In this document: in pieces, positions 1,838 to 34,108 of the stretch
Numbering within the stretch: position 1 is the stretch's first letter
How the letters are laid out: the number at the start of each line of letters is the position of its first letter
From: Pseudomonadota bacterium
Lineage (GTDB): Bacteria; Bdellovibrionota; UBA1018; CAIMNF01
DNA length: 64,000 nucleotides
Direction of reading: 5' to 3'
Assembly: GCA_027486675.1 (NCBI GenBank)
Contig: JAIXOQ010000033.1
Coordinates: forward strand, 1-64,000
The notes under the pieces: generated by a model
The model's input: only the letters and a program-made list of their open reading frames with translations
The model's database searches: none
Told to the model about the DNA's origin: nothing
Position numbers and translations under genes: made by a program

Positions 1838-2728
1838 ATGAAAGAGGCGATCGCAGGCTTTGTCAGCCCAGGCGACGATCTTTATATTGAAGGATTCACA
1901 CACCTGATCTGTTTTGCCGCGGGCCACGAAATCATCCGCCAAGGCATTGGGAATCTGACTGCGTCCCGCTTAACGCCTGACCTGGTTTACGATCAACTCA
2001 TCGAAGCAGGCTTAGTCAAAAAGCTCGTCTTTAGCTGGGCAGGAAATCCAGGCGTGGGAAGCCTTCATGGGTTGCGCAGAAGAACGCAAGCCGGAGTCAC
2101 AGACCCGATCGAACTTGAGGAATACTCCCACTTCGGAATGGTTGCACGCCTCCTTGCGGGGAGCGCGAATCTCCCCTTCTACCCGCTCACCAATTACCGA
2201 GGGACAAACATCGCTGACGTAAATCCTAAGATCAAATCGATCCTCTGCCCTTACACAGGAGTAGAACTTGCGACAGTCCCTGCCCTTCACCCAAACATCG
2301 CCATCATTCACACACAAAGAGCGGACGCGGAAGGAAACGCACAAGTCTGGGGACTCATGGGCACGCAGAAAGAGGCCGCATTTGCTTCAAAAAAGGTGAT
2401 CGTAGTGACCGAAGAGATTGTTCCTACCAGCACGATCCGATCCGATCCGAATCGCACGCTCATTCCCGGACTCATTGTGGATGCAGTCGTTCATGAACCC
2501 TGGGGCTGCCACCCATCTTATGCTCAGGGCTTTTATGACCGCGACAATGACTTTTATGTGGAGTGGGAAGACATCTCCAAGGATGCAAAAACTTACCAAG
2601 ACTACCTGGCTGAATTCGTACACGGCGTAAAAGATCGAGCGGGTTATCTAGAGAAGCTCAACTCTGGTCTAATGGCTCGACTCAAAGCAAAACCGAAAAA
2701 ATGCGAAGGAGTGGACTATGGATATTAA
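1838..2728 (+). CDS. CoA-transferase subunit A (3-oxoacid/glutaconate CoA-transferase family)
   Basis: ORF opens at 1703 overlapping the upstream gene; ATG at 1838 (MKEAIAGF...) is the likely start; family I CoA-transferase A-subunit-like sequence. Confidence 0.75.
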   Translation: MKEAIAGFVSPGDDLYIEGFTHLICFAAGHEIIRQGIGNLTASRLTPDLVYDQLIEAGLVKKLVFSWAGNPGVGSLHGLRRRTQAGVTDPIELEEYSHFGMVARLLAGSANLPFYPLTNYRGTNIADVNPKIKSILCPYTGVELATVPALHPNIAIIHTQRADAEGNAQVWGLMGTQKEAAFASKKVIVVTEEIVPTSTIRSDPNRTLIPGLIVDAVVHEPWGCHPSYAQGFYDRDNDFYVEWEDISKDAKTYQDYLAEFVHGVKDRAGYLEKLNSGLMARLKAKPKKCEGVDYGY

Positions 2729-3503
2729 GCCCATCACCTCTTCTGAACGCATGGCAGTTCGGGCCGCAAAGGAGCTTAAAAGCGGTGAAGTTGTATTTGT
2801 AGGCATCGGTCTTCCAAATCTTGCATGCAATCTTGCGCGAGCCACTCACGCACCTGAACTTTTTATGATCTATGAAAGCGGCACTATTGGGACTATCCCT
2901 GCCCGCCTTCCCGTTTCTATCGGTGATCCCACTCTTGTGACAGACAGCCTTGCAATCTGCAGCCAAAGCGATGTCTTTCAGTGCTATCTACAAGGGGGCC
3001 TCATTGAGGTCGGATTCTTGGGCGGCGCACAAGTGGATCGTTACGGAAACATCAACACGACGACCATTGGTGACTACCAAAAACCAAAGGTCCGCCTTCC
3101 TGGAAGTGGCGGGGCGTGTGAGATCGCAACTCATTCTCATCGAGTGCTTATCATGATGCGCATGACGCCAAAATCATTCGTATCAGAGGTCGATTTTGTA
3201 ACCAGCCCAGGACAAAAGATGGTGTCGAATTTAGCGGGTCGCGACCAAGGCGCCTCTAGGGATTCATTGAATCTCCCAGGCTACGGGCCAGTGACTGCAA
3301 TCACCGATGTCGGGGTTTTAGAGTTACTCGATGGGGAGTTTAAGCTCACGGAACTTTATCCAGGGGTTTCCTTTGAGGACGCTCAGGCGAAGTGTGGATG
3401 GCCCCTCAAGAGGGCCGCTCAGGTTCAAACGACCGCCGAGCCCTCACTCAACGACATCAACTTGCTGCGGAATAAAATAGATCCAAAGTCTCTCTATTTG
3501 TAA
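2718..3503 (+). CDS. CoA-transferase subunit B
   Basis: 261 aa, overlaps subunit A stop by 11 nt; SGEVVFVGIGLPNLA... typical B-subunit N-terminus. Confidence 0.75.
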   Translation: MDIKPITSSERMAVRAAKELKSGEVVFVGIGLPNLACNLARATHAPELFMIYESGTIGTIPARLPVSIGDPTLVTDSLAICSQSDVFQCYLQGGLIEVGFLGGAQVDRYGNINTTTIGDYQKPKVRLPGSGGACEIATHSHRVLIMMRMTPKSFVSEVDFVTSPGQKMVSNLAGRDQGASRDSLNLPGYGPVTAITDVGVLELLDGEFKLTELYPGVSFEDAQAKCGWPLKRAAQVQTTAEPSLNDINLLRNKIDPKSLYL

Positions 3504-5505: not shown

Positions 5506-6426
5506 TCAAACGCCGCTTCGCAGCCTGCACTCATCCGTCAACTCTTGAAGCAAGATCGCTACTCTCCGCTCACCCCGCCTCAATGCTGCGGTCACACCAA
5601 AGAGGTCGATGGGACGCGAAGTCCAGCTCGGCAAAACGGCCTGAAGCTGGCGCGTCTTGAGTTCCCGTGCAACGACAAATTCTGGAACCAGACATAGCCC
5701 TCGTCCTGCAGTCGCCACTCTCTTGATCGCGCTTAGGCTGTTGATTCGCAGAGAATGCTTCATCTCAATTTCGCGCTCTTCTTTCGTTCGTGAATTAACC
5801 ATTATCCCATCCGTAGCTGGACTCTGTCCTTTTTCGGGCAGAATTCTCAAAAGCCATGCAGGATCAATGTCCTCGATCCGGGCAATTTTGTGCTTCTTGA
5901 GAAAGTCTGGCGATGCATAGAGCTGACGTTGCACGGTGGTGAATCGGCTCTGAATGAAACTCTTGGGAGCCAGCACTGAACCCACTTCAATAAAGAGATC
6001 CTGGCTCGCGTAATCGACAGTATCTGGTTTGTTTTTCAAAGTGAGATCAATCCATAGCTTGGGATACTTCTCTGAAAATCTGGGTAAAAACGAATCGCAG
6101 AGAAAGAACCCAAATTCAAAGGGACACATAAGACGAATCAGCCCTTGTGGCTCGTCGCTCAGAGTACCAATGTATTCCTGTGCCAGACTGAGTCGCTCCA
6201 TTGCGTCAACGCAGAGCTCAGCGTACCGGTGGCCAACATCGGTAAGCGCAAAGTGTCGGGTACTTCGCAAAATCAGAACATGCCCAAGTGCCAACTCAAG
6301 ATTCTTTAATCTTCGACTCACATGAGAGTTGGGCAGACTCAAAACCTTTGCCGCCTTCGAAAGCGAGCCCTGGCGTGCGACTTCTATAAAAATCTGAATA
6401 TCCCGAGGGTCAGCCGATATTTCCAT
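5506..6426 (-). CDS. LysR family transcriptional regulator
   Basis: N-terminal HTH IQIFIEVARQGSLSKAAKVLSLPNSHVSRRLKNLE, LysR substrate-binding domain. Confidence 0.9.
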   Translation of the reverse strand: MEISADPRDIQIFIEVARQGSLSKAAKVLSLPNSHVSRRLKNLELALGHVLILRSTRHFALTDVGHRYAELCVDAMERLSLAQEYIGTLSDEPQGLIRLMCPFEFGFFLCDSFLPRFSEKYPKLWIDLTLKNKPDTVDYASQDLFIEVGSVLAPKSFIQSRFTTVQRQLYASPDFLKKHKIARIEDIDPAWLLRILPEKGQSPATDGIMVNSRTKEEREIEMKHSLRINSLSAIKRVATAGRGLCLVPEFVVARELKTRQLQAVLPSWTSRPIDLFGVTAALRRGERRVAILLQELTDECRLRSGV

Positions 6427-12849: not shown

Positions 12850-13232
12850 TATTTCTTTGAGCGACCCACTGCAGAGGCAACCGCAAGCGCGAGTTGCTGC
12901 AGAGGAAATGGCTTCGCTAGAACTGCAGAGACTCCGAATCTCTGCGCCGTATCCGCTTCAGTCTTCATCGCGATTCCCGTCAGGAGAATCATCGGCAAAT
13001 TAGGAAACTCGGCTTTCAGCTGTGCGAGCAATAACAGCCCATTCATGAATGGCATATTAATGTCCGAAACTATAACCACGTAGTCTTGGAGCCGCAGTAG
13101 TGTCAAAGCGGTGAGTCCATTGTCGGCTGCATGAACCTCATAGCCTTCAAGCTCTAGGTGCGTCTTATAGATCATCCTGAGGTCTGCATCGTCATCCACC
13201 AAAAGCACCCTCAGGGACCCTTGAGGACTCAC
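12846..13232 (-). CDS. single-domain response regulator (CheY-like receiver)
   Basis: 128 aa; LLVDDDADLR...VSDINMP...ILLTG receiver motifs; no output domain. Confidence 0.85.
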   Translation of the reverse strand: MSPQGSLRVLLVDDDADLRMIYKTHLELEGYEVHAADNGLTALTLLRLQDYVVIVSDINMPFMNGLLLLAQLKAEFPNLPMILLTGIAMKTEADTAQRFGVSAVLAKPFPLQQLALAVASAVGRSKKY

Positions 13233-14104
13233 GTGTGGACCCCCACTATCCTCTTACGGATCGTTGCTACTTGGTGTTGCCAATAGCCATCACTCGGCCC
13301 AAACCACTTTGTAGAATCCTTAAGTGAACCCATTCGGTTTGTATGCACGGGTACAAACCCGATGGCCCGGCCGCTTTCAATCCATTGCACAACATTGGAT
13401 AAACTACTGCACTCAATGACCCGCTTGGGCTGGACCTTAAGCGACTTAAGATAAACATCGATTTCTGTGCGGAGCTTTGACGATAACTTGTTGCAGGCAA
13501 GAAACAGTCCGGATTTTTCTGAAAGAGCCAAGATCTGCTTGAAATCGGAGTTAACTCCTGTCCCCTCCAGTGTACCCTTCGGCGCAAGGACTCGAACCGC
13601 AAGATCTGCTGTGCGGCGAACCTCACAGAGACCATCACTCTCTTTGGAGCCAAATGAGCCGATGATCTCGTCAAGATGATCCTTGATAAAAGCTGCATAC
13701 AGATTCTCTGAAGAATCTTGGGTGAACTCTATCCGCCCTATGTGATCTTCGCCTAAACACTGATCTAAGAGTGATGGATCAAAAGAAAGTTGGTCATGCA
13801 AATCCTGACACACCCCAACTCTGAGAACACTCTTTCGATCATCCCGTCCTGCGAGCAACTCTTCGTGTAGTTCTTGATAGGCATCAAACATCCGGGTGGT
13901 AAATTTTAGAACCAGCTCCCCATGTTCTGTGCAAACGACCCTGCCTCGGAGTCTCCGAGTCAGAGGTAGTCCTACGGATTCCTCCAGTTGCTTAAGCTGG
14001 TTGGATAATGCTGGCGGAGTGATCCCAAGACGCTTTGCAGCTCTAGAAGTACTAAATTCCTGCGAAAAAACATGAAAATAATACAAGTGCTTAAGGTTGA
14101 GCAT
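13229..14104 (-). CDS. LysR family transcriptional regulator (paralog 1)
   Basis: HTH LNLKHLYYFHVFSQEFSTSRAAKRLGITPPALSNQLKQLE; start taken at MLNLKHL (the ORF opens at 14146). Confidence 0.75.
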   Translation of the reverse strand: MLNLKHLYYFHVFSQEFSTSRAAKRLGITPPALSNQLKQLEESVGLPLTRRLRGRVVCTEHGELVLKFTTRMFDAYQELHEELLAGRDDRKSVLRVGVCQDLHDQLSFDPSLLDQCLGEDHIGRIEFTQDSSENLYAAFIKDHLDEIIGSFGSKESDGLCEVRRTADLAVRVLAPKGTLEGTGVNSDFKQILALSEKSGLFLACNKLSSKLRTEIDVYLKSLKVQPKRVIECSSLSNVVQWIESGRAIGFVPVHTNRMGSLKDSTKWFGPSDGYWQHQVATIRKRIVGVHT

Positions 14105-14203
14105 AAAGGAACAACACTCGGTAGAAAGATTCCGTGAGTTGTTCAATCAGCATTGGGGAAAGTACTAACAATCCCTATTTCAAAGATTGAAATTGTACTT
14201 TCG

Positions 14204-15109
14204 TTATTTGAATTCAAAGTCCTTCTGAAACAGCACATCTAAGGACGGAACCACATTGAGTGGAAGCTTCATCTCATTGCGAACAAAGACCGAGATCTGA
14301 TGACTCCAAAACCCTTCCGTCGGACCGAAAGAACTGAGAGCTTTTGCCGACCTAAAGTCAAGAAGGCAAGGGGTCGGAACGAAGCCAATTGCCGCACCCC
14401 GTTCAATGAGTTGGACAATTGCGCCGGATGAATTGCATACGATCGTTCTCTCAAACTTAATATTTGTCTTTAAAAAGTACGCCTCCGACTCTTGCCTGAG
14501 TACGGACGGCTCCATAGGAAAAATCAAAGCGATCCCTCTTTGTCTTGCGACTTCAAATGGATCTTCCTTCGTATCAAAAAACTCTGGGGCAAAGAGTCGG
14601 ACCGGAAACTCTAAGGTCTGAAACAGGCGGATGTGTTTGCCTATTTCTAGATCCTGGAATGACCCAAAAATAATATCAAACTCCCCATCCTCAAACTGAG
14701 TTTTTAGATGATTGGAAGACCCAAATGTGACGACCGTCGTCTTGGAAAAAGATGAGGTCATACTCTCTAGTAAAAAAAGGAGATCAAAAGAAAAGCGAGC
14801 TCCGAGGTCTCTGCAAACCCCGACTCGAATAGTGGTCGATTCAGCGGCGCTTCTTACAGTGAGTTTGGAATGCAGCTCCTCATAGAGGCTAAACATCCGA
14901 TTCACGTAATTTAAGACCATATCCCCGCACTCGGTCATGGTGACTTGACCCTCCACACGACGGGTCAACCGAACCCCTAGGACCGATTCTAGATGTTTCA
15001 GCTGATTTGAAAGTGCTGGAGCTGTAATCCCAAGTCGCCTTGCCGCCCGGCTTGTGCTGCGTTCCTGCGAGAAGACATAGAAATAATAGAGATGCTTAAG
15101 ATTGAGCAC
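14204..15109 (-). CDS. LysR family transcriptional regulator (paralog 2)
   Basis: Near-identical HTH LNLKHLYYFYVFSQERSTSRAARRLGITAPALSNQLKHLE; probable GTG start after AAGGAG (the longest ORF reaches ATG at 15214). Confidence 0.65.
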   Translation of the reverse strand: MLNLKHLYYFYVFSQERSTSRAARRLGITAPALSNQLKHLESVLGVRLTRRVEGQVTMTECGDMVLNYVNRMFSLYEELHSKLTVRSAAESTTIRVGVCRDLGARFSFDLLFLLESMTSSFSKTTVVTFGSSNHLKTQFEDGEFDIIFGSFQDLEIGKHIRLFQTLEFPVRLFAPEFFDTKEDPFEVARQRGIALIFPMEPSVLRQESEAYFLKTNIKFERTIVCNSSGAIVQLIERGAAIGFVPTPCLLDFRSAKALSSFGPTEGFWSHQISVFVRNEMKLPLNVVPSLDVLFQKDFEFK

Positions 15110-15320
15110 AGCTCCTTTGGATGCAAGTTTGGCCCCATGCCCAGGGAAGCGGTTGACTGAGCTTGGAATCGAATGGGAGGCAGTTGCGTCCTTGCACAGG
15201 TCAGAATGCCCCACACTGACGCCTAGGCTGAAGCAGGGGCGTACGTTGATGCCTCCGAGAGCTTGGCCTAGGCCTTGCTTGATAAAGAAACGTAACCGAA
15301 AACCAAGGAGAAACAGAAAA

Positions 15321-27417: not shown

Positions 27418-27786
27418 TCAGGCGACGCTGGACCCGACACTGATGGCCCAATAGATCAAGACTCCCTGAAGGGGCAGGCGTAAGAAGAGCACCCACTTTG
27501 GGATTCCTGTCCCCTCTTGCCCTAAGCGAAGCATATGAATATTTGCAGGAAAAACCGCCACTAAAAGTGCAACCAATCCCCAAGTGGCCAGTACTTTGAG
27601 CCCCGCAACCTGCACCAACAAACCCAATAAAATCTCAGCAAATCCACAGAGGAGGTTCAGCTCTTTAGGATAAGGAAGCCACGGCGGCATGATCTTCAAG
27701 TACATCCTAGGCCGAACGAAATGCATCAGCCCTGCTGCGACATAAAATGCCGTCATCGCGACGGAGCTCAAGACCTGAATGGTCAC
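27418..27786 (-). CDS. DoxX-like family membrane protein
   Basis: 122 aa, 4 TM helices. Confidence 0.55.
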   Translation of the reverse strand: MTIQVLSSVAMTAFYVAAGLMHFVRPRMYLKIMPPWLPYPKELNLLCGFAEILLGLLVQVAGLKVLATWGLVALLVAVFPANIHMLRLGQEGTGIPKWVLFLRLPLQGVLIYWAISVGSSVA

Positions 27787-27792
27787 AAAAAC

Positions 27793-28701
27793 CTAGTCGA
27801 TCCCCTTAGAGATGCCCATCAGTTGATGCATCGTGCGCTGCATACCATCGGTCGAACCATCTAAGAACAACATGTTACCCTTGCCTTGTTCAGCTACGCT
27901 CTTCAATGTTTCGGTCCACATCGCAAATAGAAGTAAAGACGAGTCGAGCTGCGCAGAGCTCATGGAGCGAGCCGCCTCACTCATCCCCTTAGCAACTTCT
28001 TGTCTGAAAAGCGCGACACCCTGCCCCCGAAGTTGTGCGGCCTGACGCTCCGCTTCTGCAGCAATACGAATGGCATTTCCTTCGGCTTCAGCACTCTTGG
28101 TTTTCGTGATCAAGAGTGCTTGGCCTTCATTCTCTGCAGCCGCCTTCAAATTGTTAGATGCAACGACCTTCGCCATCGAATCAATAATCGCCTGATCAAA
28201 GGTGATGTCATTTAACTGCAGGTCAATCAGATGATAACCCCAGCCCTCTAAGGTGCTGTCGATTTGGCCCTTCACTTCTTGTACGATTTCACGCCTAAGT
28301 CCCAAAACCTCAGACTGGCGCTTCGTTGCGACGTAGCCCCGGATGCTTCCTTCAATGGTCCGCACCAATGCCTGCATGAAGCTCCGCTCATCCATAAATT
28401 TGAAAGCGACGTTCTTCACAGTTTCTTCTTCTTGGTTAAGTACGGCGTACAGAAGCATCGTCTTAAAATAGACATTTGCCTGATCCACGGTGATGGCTTG
28501 GAACTCAAGCTCCACCGAACGATGCTGAACCGAAATCACACGAAAAATCGATTCGATTACAGGAATTCTAAAGTTAAGCCCCGCCTGCATCATACGACGG
28601 TATTTACCAAAGACGGTGACCACCGCCATCGTGCCTTGTTGCACAGTTACGAAACAGGTCACGACCAAAAAACCTAAACCCACAATAAGAATCCAAGACA
28701 T
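27793..28701 (-). CDS. SPFH/band-7 (stomatin-prohibitin) family protein
   Basis: N-terminal TM helix + SPFH core; C-terminal coiled-coil AEAERQAAQLRG. Confidence 0.8.
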   Translation of the reverse strand: MSWILIVGLGFLVVTCFVTVQQGTMAVVTVFGKYRRMMQAGLNFRIPVIESIFRVISVQHRSVELEFQAITVDQANVYFKTMLLYAVLNQEEETVKNVAFKFMDERSFMQALVRTIEGSIRGYVATKRQSEVLGLRREIVQEVKGQIDSTLEGWGYHLIDLQLNDITFDQAIIDSMAKVVASNNLKAAAENEGQALLITKTKSAEAEGNAIRIAAEAERQAAQLRGQGVALFRQEVAKGMSEAARSMSSAQLDSSLLLFAMWTETLKSVAEQGKGNMLFLDGSTDGMQRTMHQLMGISKGID

Positions 28702-28743
28702 CTCTCAAACCTCCCACCCGCGGGATTTGCGGTCAACCCCGAA

Positions 28744-29658
28744 CTAACTGCCCCCTAAGCCGTCTGAAAAGGCTGTGAGCTCGGTATTGTGATATCGAGT
28801 GTATATGGACAGATGGTCAATCAGGCCTTGCACCGTTTTCGTGGTGCACCAGGTCCTGCGGAATAGCCGGTTCATATTCGCCCGCAACATCGCGCAAGTG
28901 TGATTGAGCGAAAATAGAGGATCAAACTTAAGCTTCTTAAGCTCCCCTTGGCCGGTGATGGATCCGCGGCCGCCCGGGTTTTGCGTATGAGAACAGAGCG
29001 GGAAGTGTTTCTTTAGAATTTTTGGATAATGGGGATTTTCATCGGAAGTGAATTCTGCTGTATCTGTCACGTAGGGCTTTAGGTCCCGCATGAGTTGCTC
29101 CCATCCCTTGCGACGCTCGTCCGGACGGTAGCCGTACTTACGCAAAGCAGTTTTTGCAAGCAGCCCCTTAGCGGGCATCTTTGATACCCGGAAACCCAAG
29201 ATTTTACGTGTTTTTGGATCGACCGCGAGCGCCACACTGAGCGGCTTACATTTGGTGTGTTCACTCGTCTCTAGGTCGTCAAACTGCACAGAGACCAGGG
29301 GCTGTTTTAAAAAAGGCGCGATGGTCTGTTGATGCTGCAATCGAGCCTGTTCGGCAAGAAAACGAAAGCGCCGGACTACGGTCTTTGGGTTCACGCCTAG
29401 GACTTTAGCCGCTCTGCGCTGAGAGACACCTGAACAGAAGAGCTTCATCAATATCGGATTGATGTGACGCTTCTTCTGCCAGTAGCGTGGATCAAAAGTC
29501 GCTTTTGAAAAGTACCTTCCACAGAGCCTGCAGAAGTAGCGCTGGATGTAGCGGCTATCTGAAGCTCGGTAGGAGGACCCATTTCGGACGATGTGTTTTG
29601 TTTTTGTAGCCAAGTGAGGCTGCGGGACGCACTTAGAATTGGGGCAGCTGATTTTCAT
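28744..29658 (-). CDS. IS1-family transposase (fused InsA-InsB type)
   Basis: N-terminal zinc ribbon CPNSKC...CRLCGRYF; HTH RRAAKVLGVNPKTVVRRF; C-terminal InsB-like region ending ...LIDHLSIYTRYHN; stop codon lies inside the left IR. Confidence 0.65.
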   Translation of the reverse strand: MKISCPNSKCVPQPHLATKTKHIVRNGSSYRASDSRYIQRYFCRLCGRYFSKATFDPRYWQKKRHINPILMKLFCSGVSQRRAAKVLGVNPKTVVRRFRFLAEQARLQHQQTIAPFLKQPLVSVQFDDLETSEHTKCKPLSVALAVDPKTRKILGFRVSKMPAKGLLAKTALRKYGYRPDERRKGWEQLMRDLKPYVTDTAEFTSDENPHYPKILKKHFPLCSHTQNPGGRGSITGQGELKKLKFDPLFSLNHTCAMLRANMNRLFRRTWCTTKTVQGLIDHLSIYTRYHNTELTAFSDGLGGS

Positions 29659-29759
29659 GCCCTGCGATAGATCAAGATTTAGGCCAAGATTACTCTGGAA
29701 TCTTCGCGCATCTCGCCCGCCACCTCCCTCAAATATCAGACGGCTTAGGGGGCAGTTAG
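28744..29759 (-). mobile_element. IS1-family insertion sequence (1016 bp) with perfect 24-bp terminal inverted repeats
   Basis: CTAACTGCCCCCTAAGCCGTCTGA at 28744-28767 and its exact reverse complement at 29736-29759 bracket a single transposase ORF; no flanking direct repeat. Confidence 0.75.
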
Positions 29760-29765
29760 AACAAC

Positions 29766-30101
29766 TTGGCCTACCTCGAAATCTTTGAAGAAGCACGTTG
29801 GCAGATGATCAAAGAAAGGGGCTATGGATATCCAAAGACTCAGACCTTAAAGTTAGGCCCCGTCATTTTGGGAATCGACATTCAGTTTAGGAAAGAGATT
29901 TTGCTGCGGCAATCCTGCGTCGTGCTGAGCACTGTACAGGTCTATGAAGGGAAAATCGGAAAACTAGCCCAAGAAATGAAGTCCGAAACAGGGGACCTCA
30001 TGTGCCGCGCTGTCTACACGATTGGGCTTTTCGATATGACGGCCAGGAAGCTTGTAACCCCAAGCCCCGAGTGGCTGCACGCTTGTGGCTTAGAGCCTTA
30101 A
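29766..30101 (+). pseudogene. hotdog-fold (4HBT/YbgC-like) acyl-CoA thioesterase lacking ~20 N-terminal codons
   Basis: ORF starts 7 nt after the right IS IR at YLEIFEEARW...; this aligns to the mid-N-terminal YxxFEEAR region of YbgC-like thioesterases, so the segment with the catalytic Asp is missing. Confidence 0.5.
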
Positions 30102-30119
30102 TTTGCGCTAGAATGGGCT

Positions 30120-30281
30120 ATGAAAAACGAAAACAGCAGCGAAAACCAACCCGACAATAAGGATTCGCTCGGCTTTACCATGGGTAAGAGCCCTTGGTTC
30201 CTCTACGCATTAGCTCAAATTCCAATTTTGATTATCTTGGGTGTTATTGCTTACTTCATCTATCAAAATAGGACAGGGTAA
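30120..30281 (+). CDS. possible small membrane protein (53 aa)
   Basis: Absent from the ORF track; MKNENSSENQPDNKDSLGFTMGKSPWFLYALAQIPILIILGVIAYFIYQNRTG has a single TM helix. Confidence 0.25.
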   Translation: MKNENSSENQPDNKDSLGFTMGKSPWFLYALAQIPILIILGVIAYFIYQNRTG

Positions 30282-30292
30282 ACTGAAGGACC

Positions 30293-30655
30293 ATGTCTCT
30301 TCAAAAGAATGTTTTAGGAACCACTCTTAGGATTTGTTCGCGCTCACCGCTCACGGGCTATTACCGCAATGGTTGCTGTGAAACAGACGGCGAAGACGCT
30401 GGCGAACATACCGCTTGTGTTGAGGTCACGGCTGACTTCTTAGAGTTTTCTAAAAAAAAGGGGAACGATCTTTCCACACCTCACCCCCAGTTTGAGTTTC
30501 CTGGCCTAGTGCCCGGCGACCGATGGTGCGTCTGTGCTGGCCGCTGGGCCGAAGCGCATGCAGCAGGACAGCCTGCAAAGCTAGTTTTAGACGCGTGTCA
30601 TGAAAGCTTATTGGACTATCTCGATTTAGAAGAACTCAAAAAATTCTCCGTTTAA
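30293..30655 (+). CDS. DUF2237 family protein
   Basis: GYYRNGCCETDGEDAGEHTACVEVTADFLEFSKKKGNDLSTP...GDRWCVCAGRW conserved pattern. Confidence 0.7.
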   Translation: MSLQKNVLGTTLRICSRSPLTGYYRNGCCETDGEDAGEHTACVEVTADFLEFSKKKGNDLSTPHPQFEFPGLVPGDRWCVCAGRWAEAHAAGQPAKLVLDACHESLLDYLDLEELKKFSV

Positions 30656-30712
30656 AGACTAATATAGTGCAACCTATCGATCATACACCTTGTGTATAGA
30701 AGGACTAACAGC

Positions 30713-31186
30713 ATGAAGACATTACTCGTATTTGCACTTTCAGTTTTCAGTTCAGCAGCATTCGCAGCCGGAGACGCAGGTTGCGGTCTGGGTTCGATTA
30801 TCATTAAAGACAACACAAAAGTGATGCAGGTTCTTGCTGCAACCACCAACGGAACTTTCGGCAGCCAGACTTTCGGTATCTCAACTGGAACCTCGAACTG
30901 TTCATCAAAAGGTCTAGTCATGAATGAGAAGTCAGCGCAAATGATCGCTGAGAGCAATCTTCCTTCCCTAAAAGTGGAAGGTGCACGTGGAAACGGATCC
31001 ACTCTTTCAGCATTCGGCCTGGCTTTGGGCTGCAAAGAAGAGTCACTCGATCGTTTCGGCGCAACGATGAAAAAGAACTACTCTAACGTTTTTGGCGGCA
31101 ACAAAGATGCTAGCCAAGTAGTCAGTGCTGCTCGCGCTCAAGTTTCAAGTGATTCTGCTCTGAAACAAGCATGTTCCAACGGCTGA
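30713..31186 (+). CDS. DUF3015 family secreted protein
   Basis: AAGGA RBS; signal peptide; GCGLGS...NCSSKGL...LGCKEES DUF3015-like Cys pattern. Confidence 0.65.
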   Translation: MKTLLVFALSVFSSAAFAAGDAGCGLGSIIIKDNTKVMQVLAATTNGTFGSQTFGISTGTSNCSSKGLVMNEKSAQMIAESNLPSLKVEGARGNGSTLSAFGLALGCKEESLDRFGATMKKNYSNVFGGNKDASQVVSAARAQVSSDSALKQACSNG

Positions 31187-33045
31187 TCTCTGATCTTCTA
31201 AAAACTCTAGGGGCCACTCGTAAAGAGTGGCCCCTTTTTTTATTCGCCCTGAGCCCCACCTTAGAACAATGGCAGGAGTGGCGAACACTTCTTCATACTC
31301 GCGCATCCACCTTCACTGAGGAACGCAGTGAGGTAGTCAACGATGAGTTCTTTCTCACCCCTACCGGTCGTAACGACTTCAAAACAGAAGCCCTCGCATT
31401 TGAAGAGGCTGCAGAGCCGAACTCAACTCGCAGATTCATCCTCCAGGGCGAAAAGCTCCATGCGCAATGTGCATTTCCTTTGCGGTTTAAATGGCTTGAA
31501 TCTGTCTCTTCTAGATCCATCCCAGCCGTCCCCTGCCCTTCGCTCAAGAAATGGCTCAACCAACTAGCACCCCAGTCCGTTGTCCTCGTTTTCTCCTCCC
31601 CCTACTTAGGCAGTCCAGCCTCATTATTTGGTCATACTTTCTTTAGAATCGACAAAAAGAAGAACCCTTCCGATCCAGAGCTGATGCTTTCCTATGGAGT
31701 CGGATTTGAGGCCGCGGCCAACGAAAGCGAAGCGCTGATGTACGCAGTCAAAGGACTGCTCGGACTTTACCCCGGACGCTACTCGGTCACCCCTTACTAC
31801 CAAAAGGTCCAAGAATATGGGCACGTTGAAAACCGAGACCTGCACGAATACAAATTGAACCTCACTCCAGTGGAAACGGAACGTTTTGCACTTCATTTGT
31901 GGGAACTTCAATTTGCTGTTGCCCGCTACTTCTTCTTTAATCGCAACTGCTCCTACCACACGCTGGCGCTTCTTGAGATCGCTCGTCCTGGTATAGACCT
32001 GCGATCCAAGTTCGGAGTTATGACCGTTCCTGTGGACACAGTACGGGCTGTACGGGCTTCAGGTCTCATCAAAGAGGAGCCCCACTATCGCCCAAGCCTA
32101 AAAACCCAGATCCAGTCGGGTCTTCAAGCACTTGACCCCAAGGAACAATCTCATTTCTTTTCCTTAAGAAAGGGCGCAACCCTTCAAGGCAACGAATCTG
32201 CAGCACTCCTAGACACACTGCTGGATGATGAACAGTATCGAGCGTTTCGGGGTGGCAAGAGCCCACTCGATGCGTCCCAAACATTGCGTGAAGATTTGCT
32301 CCTTGCCCGATCTAAAGAAGAAGAAAGCACAAGCAAACCAAAAGTGACACTTCCTGCTTCACCAGAGGGCGCTCATGAGAGCACAAGAATTGCGCTTAGC
32401 GCAGGCCGCATTCCTCAAGGAACAGGAACATTCATAGAGTTTCGCCCTGCATTTCACGGACTGCTCGATCCTGAGGCTGGGATGCTTCCTTACTCCCGAC
32501 TGAGCCTGGTTGAAACCAAACTCGGTGTTGCTCGAATTCAAAACAAAACACAGTTTCGACTTCAGGAACTTGAATTTGCTTCAGTCGAACAGTACGCGCC
32601 TTCGACGGCACTCGACTTTCAGCCAGCATGGGTCTTAGGCGGAAAGCTCTTGCGCTTTAATGATCCGGATAATTTTGATCATCTTGGGTTTAGATTCCAA
32701 GCAGGCTATGGAGCAAGTCAAGAGATCAAGGCTGGCGCCGTACGGCTCTTAGGTTATGTGATGGGAAAAGGGGCGATGGACGCTTTCGGATTTGATTATT
32801 TTGCACGCCTGAGACCGTCGACCAGCGCAGGCCTAGTACTGACAGTGGGCTCTTTCCGAATTTGGAATGAAGCGGAAACGAGCATCCGTTTTCCTGGGAA
32901 GGCATCTTGGGTTTTGCAGCTCGAATCGAAGGCATCCTATGCCATCACAAACAACTTCCAACTCAATGCGCACCTTACGGAAGTTCGGGGGGACAACAAC
33001 TTCCGGTCGCGAATCGCGACCGGAGCTATTGCTTATTTTTATTAA
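31171..33045 (+). CDS. DUF4105 (Lnb N-terminal periplasmic domain) protein; start uncertain
   Basis: N-terminal W..LLH....FFL..G...F..EA....C.FP.RF.WL pattern, then FGHTFFRID core. The only in-frame ATG is at 31171, upstream of the terminator hairpin. Confidence 0.6.
   Translation: MFQRLISDLLKTLGATRKEWPLFLFALSPTLEQWQEWRTLLHTRASTFTEERSEVVNDEFFLTPTGRNDFKTEALAFEEAAEPNSTRRFILQGEKLHAQCAFPLRFKWLESVSSRSIPAVPCPSLKKWLNQLAPQSVVLVFSSPYLGSPASLFGHTFFRIDKKKNPSDPELMLSYGVGFEAAANESEALMYAVKGLLGLYPGRYSVTPYYQKVQEYGHVENRDLHEYKLNLTPVETERFALHLWELQFAVARYFFFNRNCSYHTLALLEIARPGIDLRSKFGVMTVPVDTVRAVRASGLIKEEPHYRPSLKTQIQSGLQALDPKEQSHFFSLRKGATLQGNESAALLDTLLDDEQYRAFRGGKSPLDASQTLREDLLLARSKEEESTSKPKVTLPASPEGAHESTRIALSAGRIPQGTGTFIEFRPAFHGLLDPEAGMLPYSRLSLVETKLGVARIQNKTQFRLQELEFASVEQYAPSTALDFQPAWVLGGKLLRFNDPDNFDHLGFRFQAGYGASQEIKAGAVRLLGYVMGKGAMDAFGFDYFARLRPSTSAGLVLTVGSFRIWNEAETSIRFPGKASWVLQLESKASYAITNNFQLNAHLTEVRGDNNFRSRIATGAIAYFY
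31209..31244 (+). terminator. rho-independent terminator-like hairpin (aggggccactc/gagtggcccct + T7)
   Basis: Perfect 11-bp GC-rich stem and T-run 24 nt after the DUF3015 stop, but inside the annotated reading frame of the next gene. Confidence 0.55.
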
Positions 33046-33052
33046 AGAGCCC

Positions 33053-34108
33053 TTAGCGGGACTGAATAGAAGCGATCACTCGGCGGTTTTGAGTGCGACC
33101 ATCCGCTGTTGCATTGTCTGCAATCGGATTCGCCGGACCATAACCTTTAGAGGTGATTCGGGTTGAGTCTGCACCAAGTTGCTTCACCAAATAGTTTGCA
33201 ACTGCAGCCGCACGTGCTTCAGACAGAGTCACGTTCTTTGACGCTACTCCCCTTGAGTCACTGTAGCCTTGAATCTCCATCTTGAGATCACTGTGATCGG
33301 CAAGAAGCTTTGAAATTTTCTCAAGTTCGGAGTGAAACTTCGCATCCACGACTGCTCGTGAAGGTGCGAATTGCACTGCGATGGTCATATCGACTTTTTG
33401 ATCGAGTAAACAACCGAGCGAGTTCACGCTTTGGCCTGAAGGTGTACCTGAACATTGATCGATGCTGTTACGCACGCCATCACTGTCATCATCACCATCT
33501 GCTTTTGCTACTGGCTTCGCAACCGGTGCTACCATAGGTTCCGAATGATCAGATTCACCAAAGTAGAACGTCAGGTTCAACTGAGGAATAATAGTATGTT
33601 CGTTTGGAAAGCCACTTTGATCTGCGATCACTAAATTATAGCGACCACTGACACCGACTAAAAAACAATCGGTCATCGCGTAATCAAGACCGATTTTCCC
33701 GTTCACAAACCAGTTGTCAAAGCTTCCACTTTGATCTCCGTGAATCGTTGCATACCCAGCGCCGAATCCTAAAACCGGCGTCATGCGAGAAGTGGACATA
33801 ACACGGTAGTTTAAGCCCGCTCCGAATAGGTTCCGCTTTGGATTTCCGCCTTCATATTGAAGCCTCGAAAAATTAAGCTCAATACCTAAAGCATTCGTGA
33901 AGTTATAGAGTCCGCGACCATCAAAGGCCCAACCCGTACTGTTCGCGTCCCGAAAGGTCGGCGACTGAAATGGGAGAGCAGCACCTGCTCCAACTCCTAT
34001 TCCATACCTACCTTTCAGCTCTATCGCGTCACTACTCTCAATGGCGAATGCGGGACTTACACTGCTTAAAACAAAGATCGCTGATGCGATCTGATGACTA
34101 AATTTCAT
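33053..34108 (-). CDS. OmpA family outer membrane protein (beta-barrel + TSP3-like Asp-rich repeat + OmpA domain)
   Basis: Signal peptide; DGDDDSDGV; C-terminal OmpA motifs GYSDSRG...NRRV. Confidence 0.8.
   Translation of the reverse strand: MKFSHQIASAIFVLSSVSPAFAIESSDAIELKGRYGIGVGAGAALPFQSPTFRDANSTGWAFDGRGLYNFTNALGIELNFSRLQYEGGNPKRNLFGAGLNYRVMSTSRMTPVLGFGAGYATIHGDQSGSFDNWFVNGKIGLDYAMTDCFLVGVSGRYNLVIADQSGFPNEHTIIPQLNLTFYFGESDHSEPMVAPVAKPVAKADGDDDSDGVRNSIDQCSGTPSGQSVNSLGCLLDQKVDMTIAVQFAPSRAVVDAKFHSELEKISKLLADHSDLKMEIQGYSDSRGVASKNVTLSEARAAAVANYLVKQLGADSTRITSKGYGPANPIADNATADGRTQNRRVIASIQSR

Follow-up and report, generated by a model that had tools for sequence, protein, structure and literature searches.

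The 64-kb window analyzed here (64,000 nucleotides, positions 1 to 64,000 of contig JAIXOQ010000033.1) carries a complete insertion sequence (IS) of 1016 bp at positions 28744 to 29759, whose transposase is encoded on the minus strand and whose right end abuts the remnant of an acyl-CoA thioesterase gene. Comparison with the empty site of a related organism indicates that an IS-associated loss of about 103 bp very probably truncated this gene at its 5' end. Regarding the specific route, insertion followed by an IS-mediated adjacent deletion is the explanation that we favor, with moderate confidence. The combination of an IS and an adjacent deletion that truncates a gene is a well-known phenomenon, and the locus offers a textbook case of gene erosion by an IS, in which the missing target duplication serves as a sign of secondary rearrangement.

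The empty site is found in two Logan contigs of a related organism, L001 (from SRR30952583) and L002 (from SRR30952588). Their gene order is that of the window, with a Band_7 gene, a 70-bp spacer, and a full thioesterase gene of 138 codons, and they contain no IS. When the IS is removed from the window, both sides are homologous to these contigs, and the only gap in the alignment, of about 103 bp, coincides exactly with the IS position. The gap corresponds to positions 5920 to 6021 of L001, which comprise the last 27 bp of the spacer and thioesterase codons 1 to 25. The initial annotation of this DNA had proposed that insertion followed by an adjacent deletion or rearrangement removed the 5' end of the gene, and the comparison with IS-less relatives supports that proposal. 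It had also noted that the N-terminal coding sequence is not found on the left flank; indeed, what lies on that side is homologous to the spacer and the 5' end of the Band_7 gene, and no trace of the lost segment was detected there or elsewhere in the 64-kb window, which rules out its local inversion or translocation. The flanking genes of L001 and L002 are 76 to 87% identical to those of the window at the nucleotide level, and the two contigs thus stand for a sister lineage, not a direct ancestor.

The limits of the element are given by its terminal inverted repeats (IRs) and match the boundaries of the empty-site alignment. The sequence CTAACTGCCCCCTAAGCCGTCTGA on the Band_7 side (28744 to 28767, plus strand) pairs at 24 of 24 positions with its exact reverse complement on the thioesterase side (29736 to 29759, minus strand). 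These are the only two matches to the repeat in the window at up to three mismatches, and none was found in 100 shuffled sequences, so the perfect 24-bp IRs reported at first hold. The transposase coding sequence runs on the minus strand from an ATG at 29658 to a TAG at 28744 to 28746 (28744 to 29658 in all, 304 amino acids [aa] plus stop). The stop codon is thus formed by the terminal three bases of the element, and the minus strand of the Band_7-side IR encodes the transposase C terminus, SDGLGGS; a C-terminal GGS or GAS is common to many relatives. The open reading frame (ORF) is uninterrupted, as had been claimed, and is alignable over 100% of its length to relatives of 300 to 306 aa. The span first assigned to the element, 28744 to 30101, has the correct start, but the element ends at 29759, and position 30101 is the end of the stop codon of the thioesterase remnant. 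The G+C content of the element, about 0.51, is the same as that of its surroundings.

With an intact ORF and perfect IRs, it is plausible that the element is active. No further copies of the exact element were found in the 64-kb window or in the other data searched; the exact IR has no match in the JGI metagenomes, and the exact transposase protein was found on one contig only among the databases searched. The frame 5' of the transposase ATG is open through the right IR and into the thioesterase antisense strand as far as a GTG at 29796 (29659 to 29796, minus strand). An ORF of 350 aa listed for this region begins at that GTG, outside the element, and has 46 codons beyond the 304-aa product. 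This upstream extension is probably fortuitous, although it would permit a fusion product if transcription came in from outside.

The gene to the right of the IS (29760 to 30101, plus strand) encodes a FadM/YbaW-type hotdog acyl-CoA thioesterase, of which codons 26 to 138 of the L001 orthologue and the stop codon are left. The frame resumes at NNLAYLEIFEEARW, with the first base after the IR (29760). The remnant lacks strand beta-1 and the catalytic Asp. It matches the Pfam 4HBT_2 model with 39.9 bits (E = 6.6e-10; gathering threshold, 25.5 bits) beginning at profile position 16, whereas the full-length orthologue scores 72.4 bits from profile position 5. Among 50-odd homologues of about 131 to 153 aa, all have a conserved N terminus, which reads ...YPF.TKESQ(I/M)DFLGHLNNLAYLE(I/V)FEEARW; the ...ESQIDFLGHL part is conserved from the closest homologues (P0002 and P0003) out to Bdellovibrio spp. 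The segment absent from the window includes ...THIYPFETKESQ(I/M)DFLGHL, with the motif residues D-F-L-G-H-L falling within the 25 lost codons and the window beginning at N-N.

The orthologue of 138 aa matches the E. coli YbaW/FadM structure 1NJK (E = 3.7e-8), including a D-x-x-x-H-x-N-N motif, and its Asp20 aligns with a position that is D in structure 5BYU and A in the catalytic-mutant structure 5DIO. Asp20, which lies inside the lost stretch, is therefore the catalytic Asp of the hotdog fold, in agreement with the earlier proposal that the N-terminal catalytic Asp is gone. Two details of that proposal needed correction. The gene is truncated, but 25 residues are absent in the homologue alignment rather than about 20; and homology begins at the first base after the IR, not 7 nucleotides beyond it, where the TTG at 29766 is only the first possible start. 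A second candidate start is the ATG at 29805, from which the source annotation has a protein of 98 aa (P0001).

With the native start, the catalytic Asp, and the upstream region gone, the remaining 113 codons are a pseudogene, and the 98-aa P0001 is the product of a pseudogene fragment. The remnant is still open, with 86% protein identity to the orthologue, and it adjoins perfect IRs, which suggests that the inactivation was recent.

That nothing is missing at all, either because the protein family naturally starts near YLEIFEEAR or because a simple insertion produced a duplication with shifted boundaries, can be dismissed with near certainty. The TTG and the ATG mentioned above could serve as starts, as the annotated 98-aa protein illustrates, and an ORF on the left flank (28616 to 28747) would join the remnant in frame, assuming a 2-bp AA duplication. 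However, full-length homologues do not start at YLEIFEEAR, all of the 50-odd proteins described above carrying the conserved N terminus. The left-flank ORF, which on such a join would place an Asp at the right distance, was rejected as the lost N terminus: its DNA corresponds, in L001 and L002, to the spacer and the 5' end of the Band_7 gene rather than to thioesterase coding sequence, and its translation, PRDLRSTP, is unlike IDFLGHL. Nor does a repeat of at least 5 bp emerge when the boundaries are moved by as much as 6 bp.

The flanks of the IS were compared in more than one way. The adjoining 9-mers, AACCCCGAA and AACAACTTG, match at 4 of 9 positions, and the adjoining 8-mers match at 2 of 8. 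Moving either boundary by 6 bp or less yields no direct repeat of at least 5 bp, and the only shared sequence is the 2-bp AA. The longest word shared within 25 bp of the IS is CAAC, a length equaled or exceeded by 81% of random pairs. The absence of a target-site duplication, reported initially with the reservation that one might be found with slightly different boundaries, thus extends to the shifted boundaries, and such a duplication was ruled out.

The length of the duplication normally made by this clade was sought in other copies. No exact copy was found, but about 100 relatives from genomes and metagenomes could be surveyed (flank set of about 98 relatives, L005 to L170). Eight of them (L011, L036, L093, L123, L132, L141, L145, and L156) have perfect 9-bp duplications flush with their termini, and two more match at 8 of 9 positions; the chance of a perfect 9-bp match is about 4e-6 per locus. 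Furthermore, when all copies are taken together, the pattern (T/A)(A/G)A-NNN-T(T/C)A is present independently in the 9 bp beyond each end, in the same register on both flanks. This target signature is nearly palindromic and adjoins G+C-rich bases. Some 9-mers recur between loci: AAAGCCTTA flanks the element on the left in L114 and on the right in L113, and L094, L112, L114, and L132 have TAAGAATTA in common. These observations indicate that the clade makes 9-bp duplications, and the frequent lack of duplications in the contigs reflects copies having traded flanks, through genuine recombination or through chimeric assembly. Transposition without duplication as the norm of the clade was ruled out by the eight perfect duplications, the in-register signature, and the swapped 9-mers. 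Since the clade normally makes a 9-bp duplication, a copy without one, as here, is a sign of a secondary event. Duplications are also missing from the nearest relatives, L088 (83% nucleotide identity) and L090 (72%). A frameshift in the L088 transposase, suggested by a gene call of 218 aa, proved to be an artifact of the call, as the 304-codon frame is intact.

Taken together, the missing duplication and the 103-bp deficit argue for a secondary event at the IS. In the route that we favor, the element would first have inserted in or beside the 103-bp stretch at the 5' end of the thioesterase gene, making a 9-bp duplication. One IS end would then have attacked a target close by on its own molecule (intramolecular transposition), with loss of the intervening DNA and of one copy of the duplication. 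The expected outcome would be one intact IS whose ends are perfect and whose two flanking 9-mers are unrelated, together with a short deficit on one side. Adjacent deletions and recombination between IS copies are both recognized causes of IS copies without duplications (PMC11708052).

The second of these causes provides an alternative in which two copies in the same orientation lay about 103 bp apart and homologous recombination removed the intervening segment along with one copy. We consider this unlikely. In its favor, the end product would be identical (a lone IS, flanks that share no duplication, and a short deficit), and an exchange of flanks is visible between L114 and L113, where the left 9-mer of one is the right 9-mer of the other; recombination between IS copies is also a known cause of missing duplications (PMC11708052). 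On the other hand, two independent insertions within about 100 bp are required, and no other copy of the element is present in the 64-kb window or in the databases searched.

A target-site matrix built from the relatives gives 0.86 bits for the thioesterase-side 9-mer, which is typical, and -0.56 for the Band_7-side 9-mer, which is poor, against a family mean of 1.6; the matrix is weak, and its signal was too weak for the flank scores to indicate which side was deleted. The poor fit of the Band_7-side flank is consistent with an explanation in which deletion and insertion were independent, that is, the IS entered a DNA break or a site already deleted, or its terminus became by chance the end point of a later illegitimate deletion. 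Movement of IS elements without duplication into breaks and rearrangement junctions has been proposed (PMC11708052). However, the deletion would then have to end, to the very base, at both of the intact IS termini, and the open remnant with its 86% protein identity suggests recent inactivation; independent events are therefore rated as improbable.

Several points weigh against insertion followed by an adjacent deletion. The empty-site reference belongs to a different species-level lineage (76 to 87% nucleotide identity), so that it constrains only loosely which bases stood there originally and which side was deleted. The duplication length of the exact element itself would have to be read from a second copy, and none is available. 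The two flank 9-mers are average to weak matches to the target signature, itself a weak one (0.86 and -0.56 bits, against the mean of 1.6), and they neither support nor exclude two joints made by the transposase. Finally, a short-read assembly could hide a second IS copy.

An independent assembly of SRR16126844 (Logan) contains the two junctions, identical at every base. Contig L085 corresponds to window positions 27596 to 29554 and contig L086 to positions 29527 to 33350, such that the assembly breaks inside the IS with an overlap of 28 bp (29527 to 29554); the other ends of the two contigs, at 27596 and 33350, are at nonrepeat positions. The break within the IS could mean that further or variant copies are present in the sample. 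Both flanks of the IS are syntenic neighbors in the relatives, which argues that the join is not a chimera of unrelated flanks. A different kind of assembly error would be a collapse in which the true order is IS, 103-bp segment, and second IS, with nothing deleted and the gene still split. In its favor, the assembly behind the window is of the metagenome type, the Logan contigs break within the IS as is usual at repeats, and the contigs of the relatives show flank swapping consistent with chimeric joins. However, the same two junctions appear in two assemblies, the searches found no protein or contig with the missing N terminus at near-100% identity, and the breaks at the nonrepeat positions make the break in the IS weak evidence for a repeat. 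Such a collapse seems very improbable, and insertion with an adjacent deletion remains the reading that we adopt.

The left neighbor of the IS is an intact SPFH/Band_7 gene (27793 to 28701, minus strand; Pfam Band_7, E = 1e-30) that is syntenic in L001 and L002. Between it and the element are 42 bp (28702 to 28743) that align to L001 positions 5877 to 5919 and represent the rest of the ancestral 70-bp divergent spacer. The transposase points the same way as the Band_7 gene, whose start codon is 42 bp downstream of the transposase stop, and no terminator-like site was found in these 42 bp. Everything beyond 42 bp upstream of the Band_7 gene has been replaced by the element. Promoter scans of the junction and of the empty site gave no consensus matches, and no outward promoter from the IS was evident. 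Expression of the Band_7 gene may have changed and may now be driven from the 42 bp that are left or by transcription that reads through from the IS. For the organism, a Bdellovibrio-like relative of predatory bacteria within the Bdellovibrionota, the event means that one accessory acyl-CoA thioesterase has been inactivated and that the region upstream of the Band_7 gene has been remodeled. To the right of the thioesterase remnant are a small ORF, a DUF2237 gene, a DUF3015 gene, and further genes. Farther away, two adjacent genes on the minus strand encode LysR-type regulators of 305 and 336 aa (13229 to 15214). A weak tblastn match at 13967 to 14071, considered as a possible second transposase, is the helix-turn-helix (HTH) of the first of these regulators and was discarded as spurious.

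In both of the close relatives L088 and L090, the IS terminus supplies stop codons to neighboring ORFs. In L088 (2643 to 2650), an M16 peptidase ORF ends in a TGA that spans the boundary between flank and IS. In L090 (2921 to 2927 and 3912 to 3915), both neighbors, an ORF of 390 aa and SecA, continue into the element and terminate at the TAA of CTAACTG.

Other relatives occupy orthologous loci. One group (L017, L021, and L037) and another (L023, L028, L031, and L032) are each found at the same locus in three or four different metagenome-assembled genomes (MAGs) of Bdellovibrionota, with the transposase at about 2501 to 3391 in each and with 600-bp flanks that are 82 to 93% identical on both sides. 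All of these ORFs are intact (297 aa), the ratio of nonsynonymous to synonymous substitution rates (dN/dS) is 0.03 to 0.08, and dS is >1 (saturated). Their IRs still match at 18 to 21 of 24 positions, and they have no duplication. Within one genome, transposase copies share only 70 to 80% nucleotide identity. Such a pattern resembles selective retention over a long time, or else recurrent site-specific insertion, at these loci. Low dN/dS, intact ORFs, and orthologous positions are unusual for a selfish IS, which makes retention at the level of the host possible. That some members of this very large clade, which perhaps uses an Asn in place of the third catalytic carboxylate, have been retained by their hosts through domestication or as site-specific residents is a speculative and rather doubtful suggestion.

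More than 5000 protein clusters belong to the transposase family at E ≤ 1e-3, which makes it a large one. All of the loci retrieved from the species-level genome collection (80 of 80) are in Bdellovibrionota MAGs or in MAGs labeled only as Proteobacteria or Pseudomonadota. The protein begins with a zinc finger, CxxxxC...CxxC, whose cysteines C5, C10, C43, and C46 are invariant among the relatives, followed by an HTH that reads SGVSQRRAA..L.VN.KTVVR in their alignment. Two acidic motifs, D127/D128 (QFDDLET) and D206 (SDENPHY), are likewise invariant, and the domain that carries them is a putative catalytic domain of the RNase-H fold. Between the second Asp motif and a helix that by eye resembles the catalytic-Glu helix of IS1, about 20 residues are inserted in the family (GGRG..GQGELKK, modeled with low confidence). 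This insertion and the region around N252 make up transposase residues 229 to 259 (window positions about 28882 to 28974, minus strand). By eye, the helix LNHTCAMLRANLNRL may pair with IERHNLNLRQHLARL of IS1, which would place the invariant Asn N252 at the Glu of IS1. An Arg follows seven residues on (R259), an arrangement that may recall the DDNK motif of the IS1595 family, and a motif of that type would presumably parallel N252...R259.

The initial annotation had placed the element in the IS1 family, which holds in the sense of a distant relationship. The NCBIfam IS1 model (NF033558) matches residues 19 to 223 with 44.8 bits (E = 1.4e-11), far below the curated cutoff of 100 bits. It is the best transposase match for all 24 relatives scored, none of which reaches the cutoff. 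The catalytic part of the transposase has no match in Pfam, with no DDE_Tnp_IS1 match at E ≤ 1. The NCBIfam IS1595 model (NF033547) gives 17.3 bits (E = 0.0034; cutoff, 75 bits) and matches 1 of the 24 relatives, and the model of the zinc-binding domain shared by IS1 and IS1595 matches weakly (E = 0.015). The family profile aligns by hhalign with residues 14 to 87 (zinc finger and HTH) of InsAB' of E. coli (E = 9.7e-5; probability, 58%), for the N-terminal part only, and BLASTP of the C-terminal motifs against IS1 was not significant. Overall, the element can be called IS1 type only loosely: it is a distant relative of IS1 and seems to work as IS1-type elements do, but it is below the curated thresholds for membership, and it appears to be an uncatalogued, distant IS1-like member. 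The clade is thus an abundant one in Bdellovibrionota that is unmodeled in Pfam and below threshold in NCBIfam, which gives its description value for annotation. Its 9-bp duplication, its preference for TRA-NNN-TYA targets, and its long-lived orthologous copies may interest those who classify IS elements.

The outcome at the thioesterase gene resembles cases from the E. coli long-term evolution experiment, in which there is likewise an intact IS, no duplication, and a one-sided loss that ends at the IS terminus (PMC11708052). In contrast to those cases, the deficit here is only about 103 bp and comes from a comparison across species rather than from an evolving lineage. The gene itself is comparable to those for FadM/YbaW (thioesterase III; 1NJK) and the YbgC-type 4HBT enzymes, as both the remnant and its orthologue match Pfam 4HBT_2 and TIGR00051. 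The FadM/YbgC-type enzymes have the N-terminal Asp, whereas the window copy is without residues 1 to 25, including that Asp, so it cannot function as a member of the group.

Of the known IS families, IS1595 is similar to the element in having a single ORF of about 300 aa, an N-terminal zinc finger, and a length of about 1 kb. However, the element scores far lower with the IS1595 model than with the IS1 model (17 versus 45 bits), and IS1595 elements typically yield 8-bp duplications, whereas 9 bp are observed in the relatives of the element. The 9-bp length is that of IS1, for which adjacent deletions are a classical property. Compared with the E. coli element IS1A (taken from NC_000913), the transposase N terminus is homologous to the zinc finger and HTH of InsA, and the IRs are of similar length (24 bp here and about 23 bp in IS1, as read from L087), with termini CTAACTGCC... 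in the element and GGTGATGCTGCC... in IS1. The element is longer (1016 versus 768 bp), and it and its relatives have a single continuous ORF, of 304 codons here, whereas the 232 aa of the IS1 transposase are read from two frames via a -1 frameshift (InsA/InsB). ISfinder lists single-ORF subgroups of IS1 too, so this difference does not exclude membership. The hosts also differ: among the loci found, the relatives of the element are in Bdellovibrionota only, whereas the IS1 used for comparison is from Escherichia coli.

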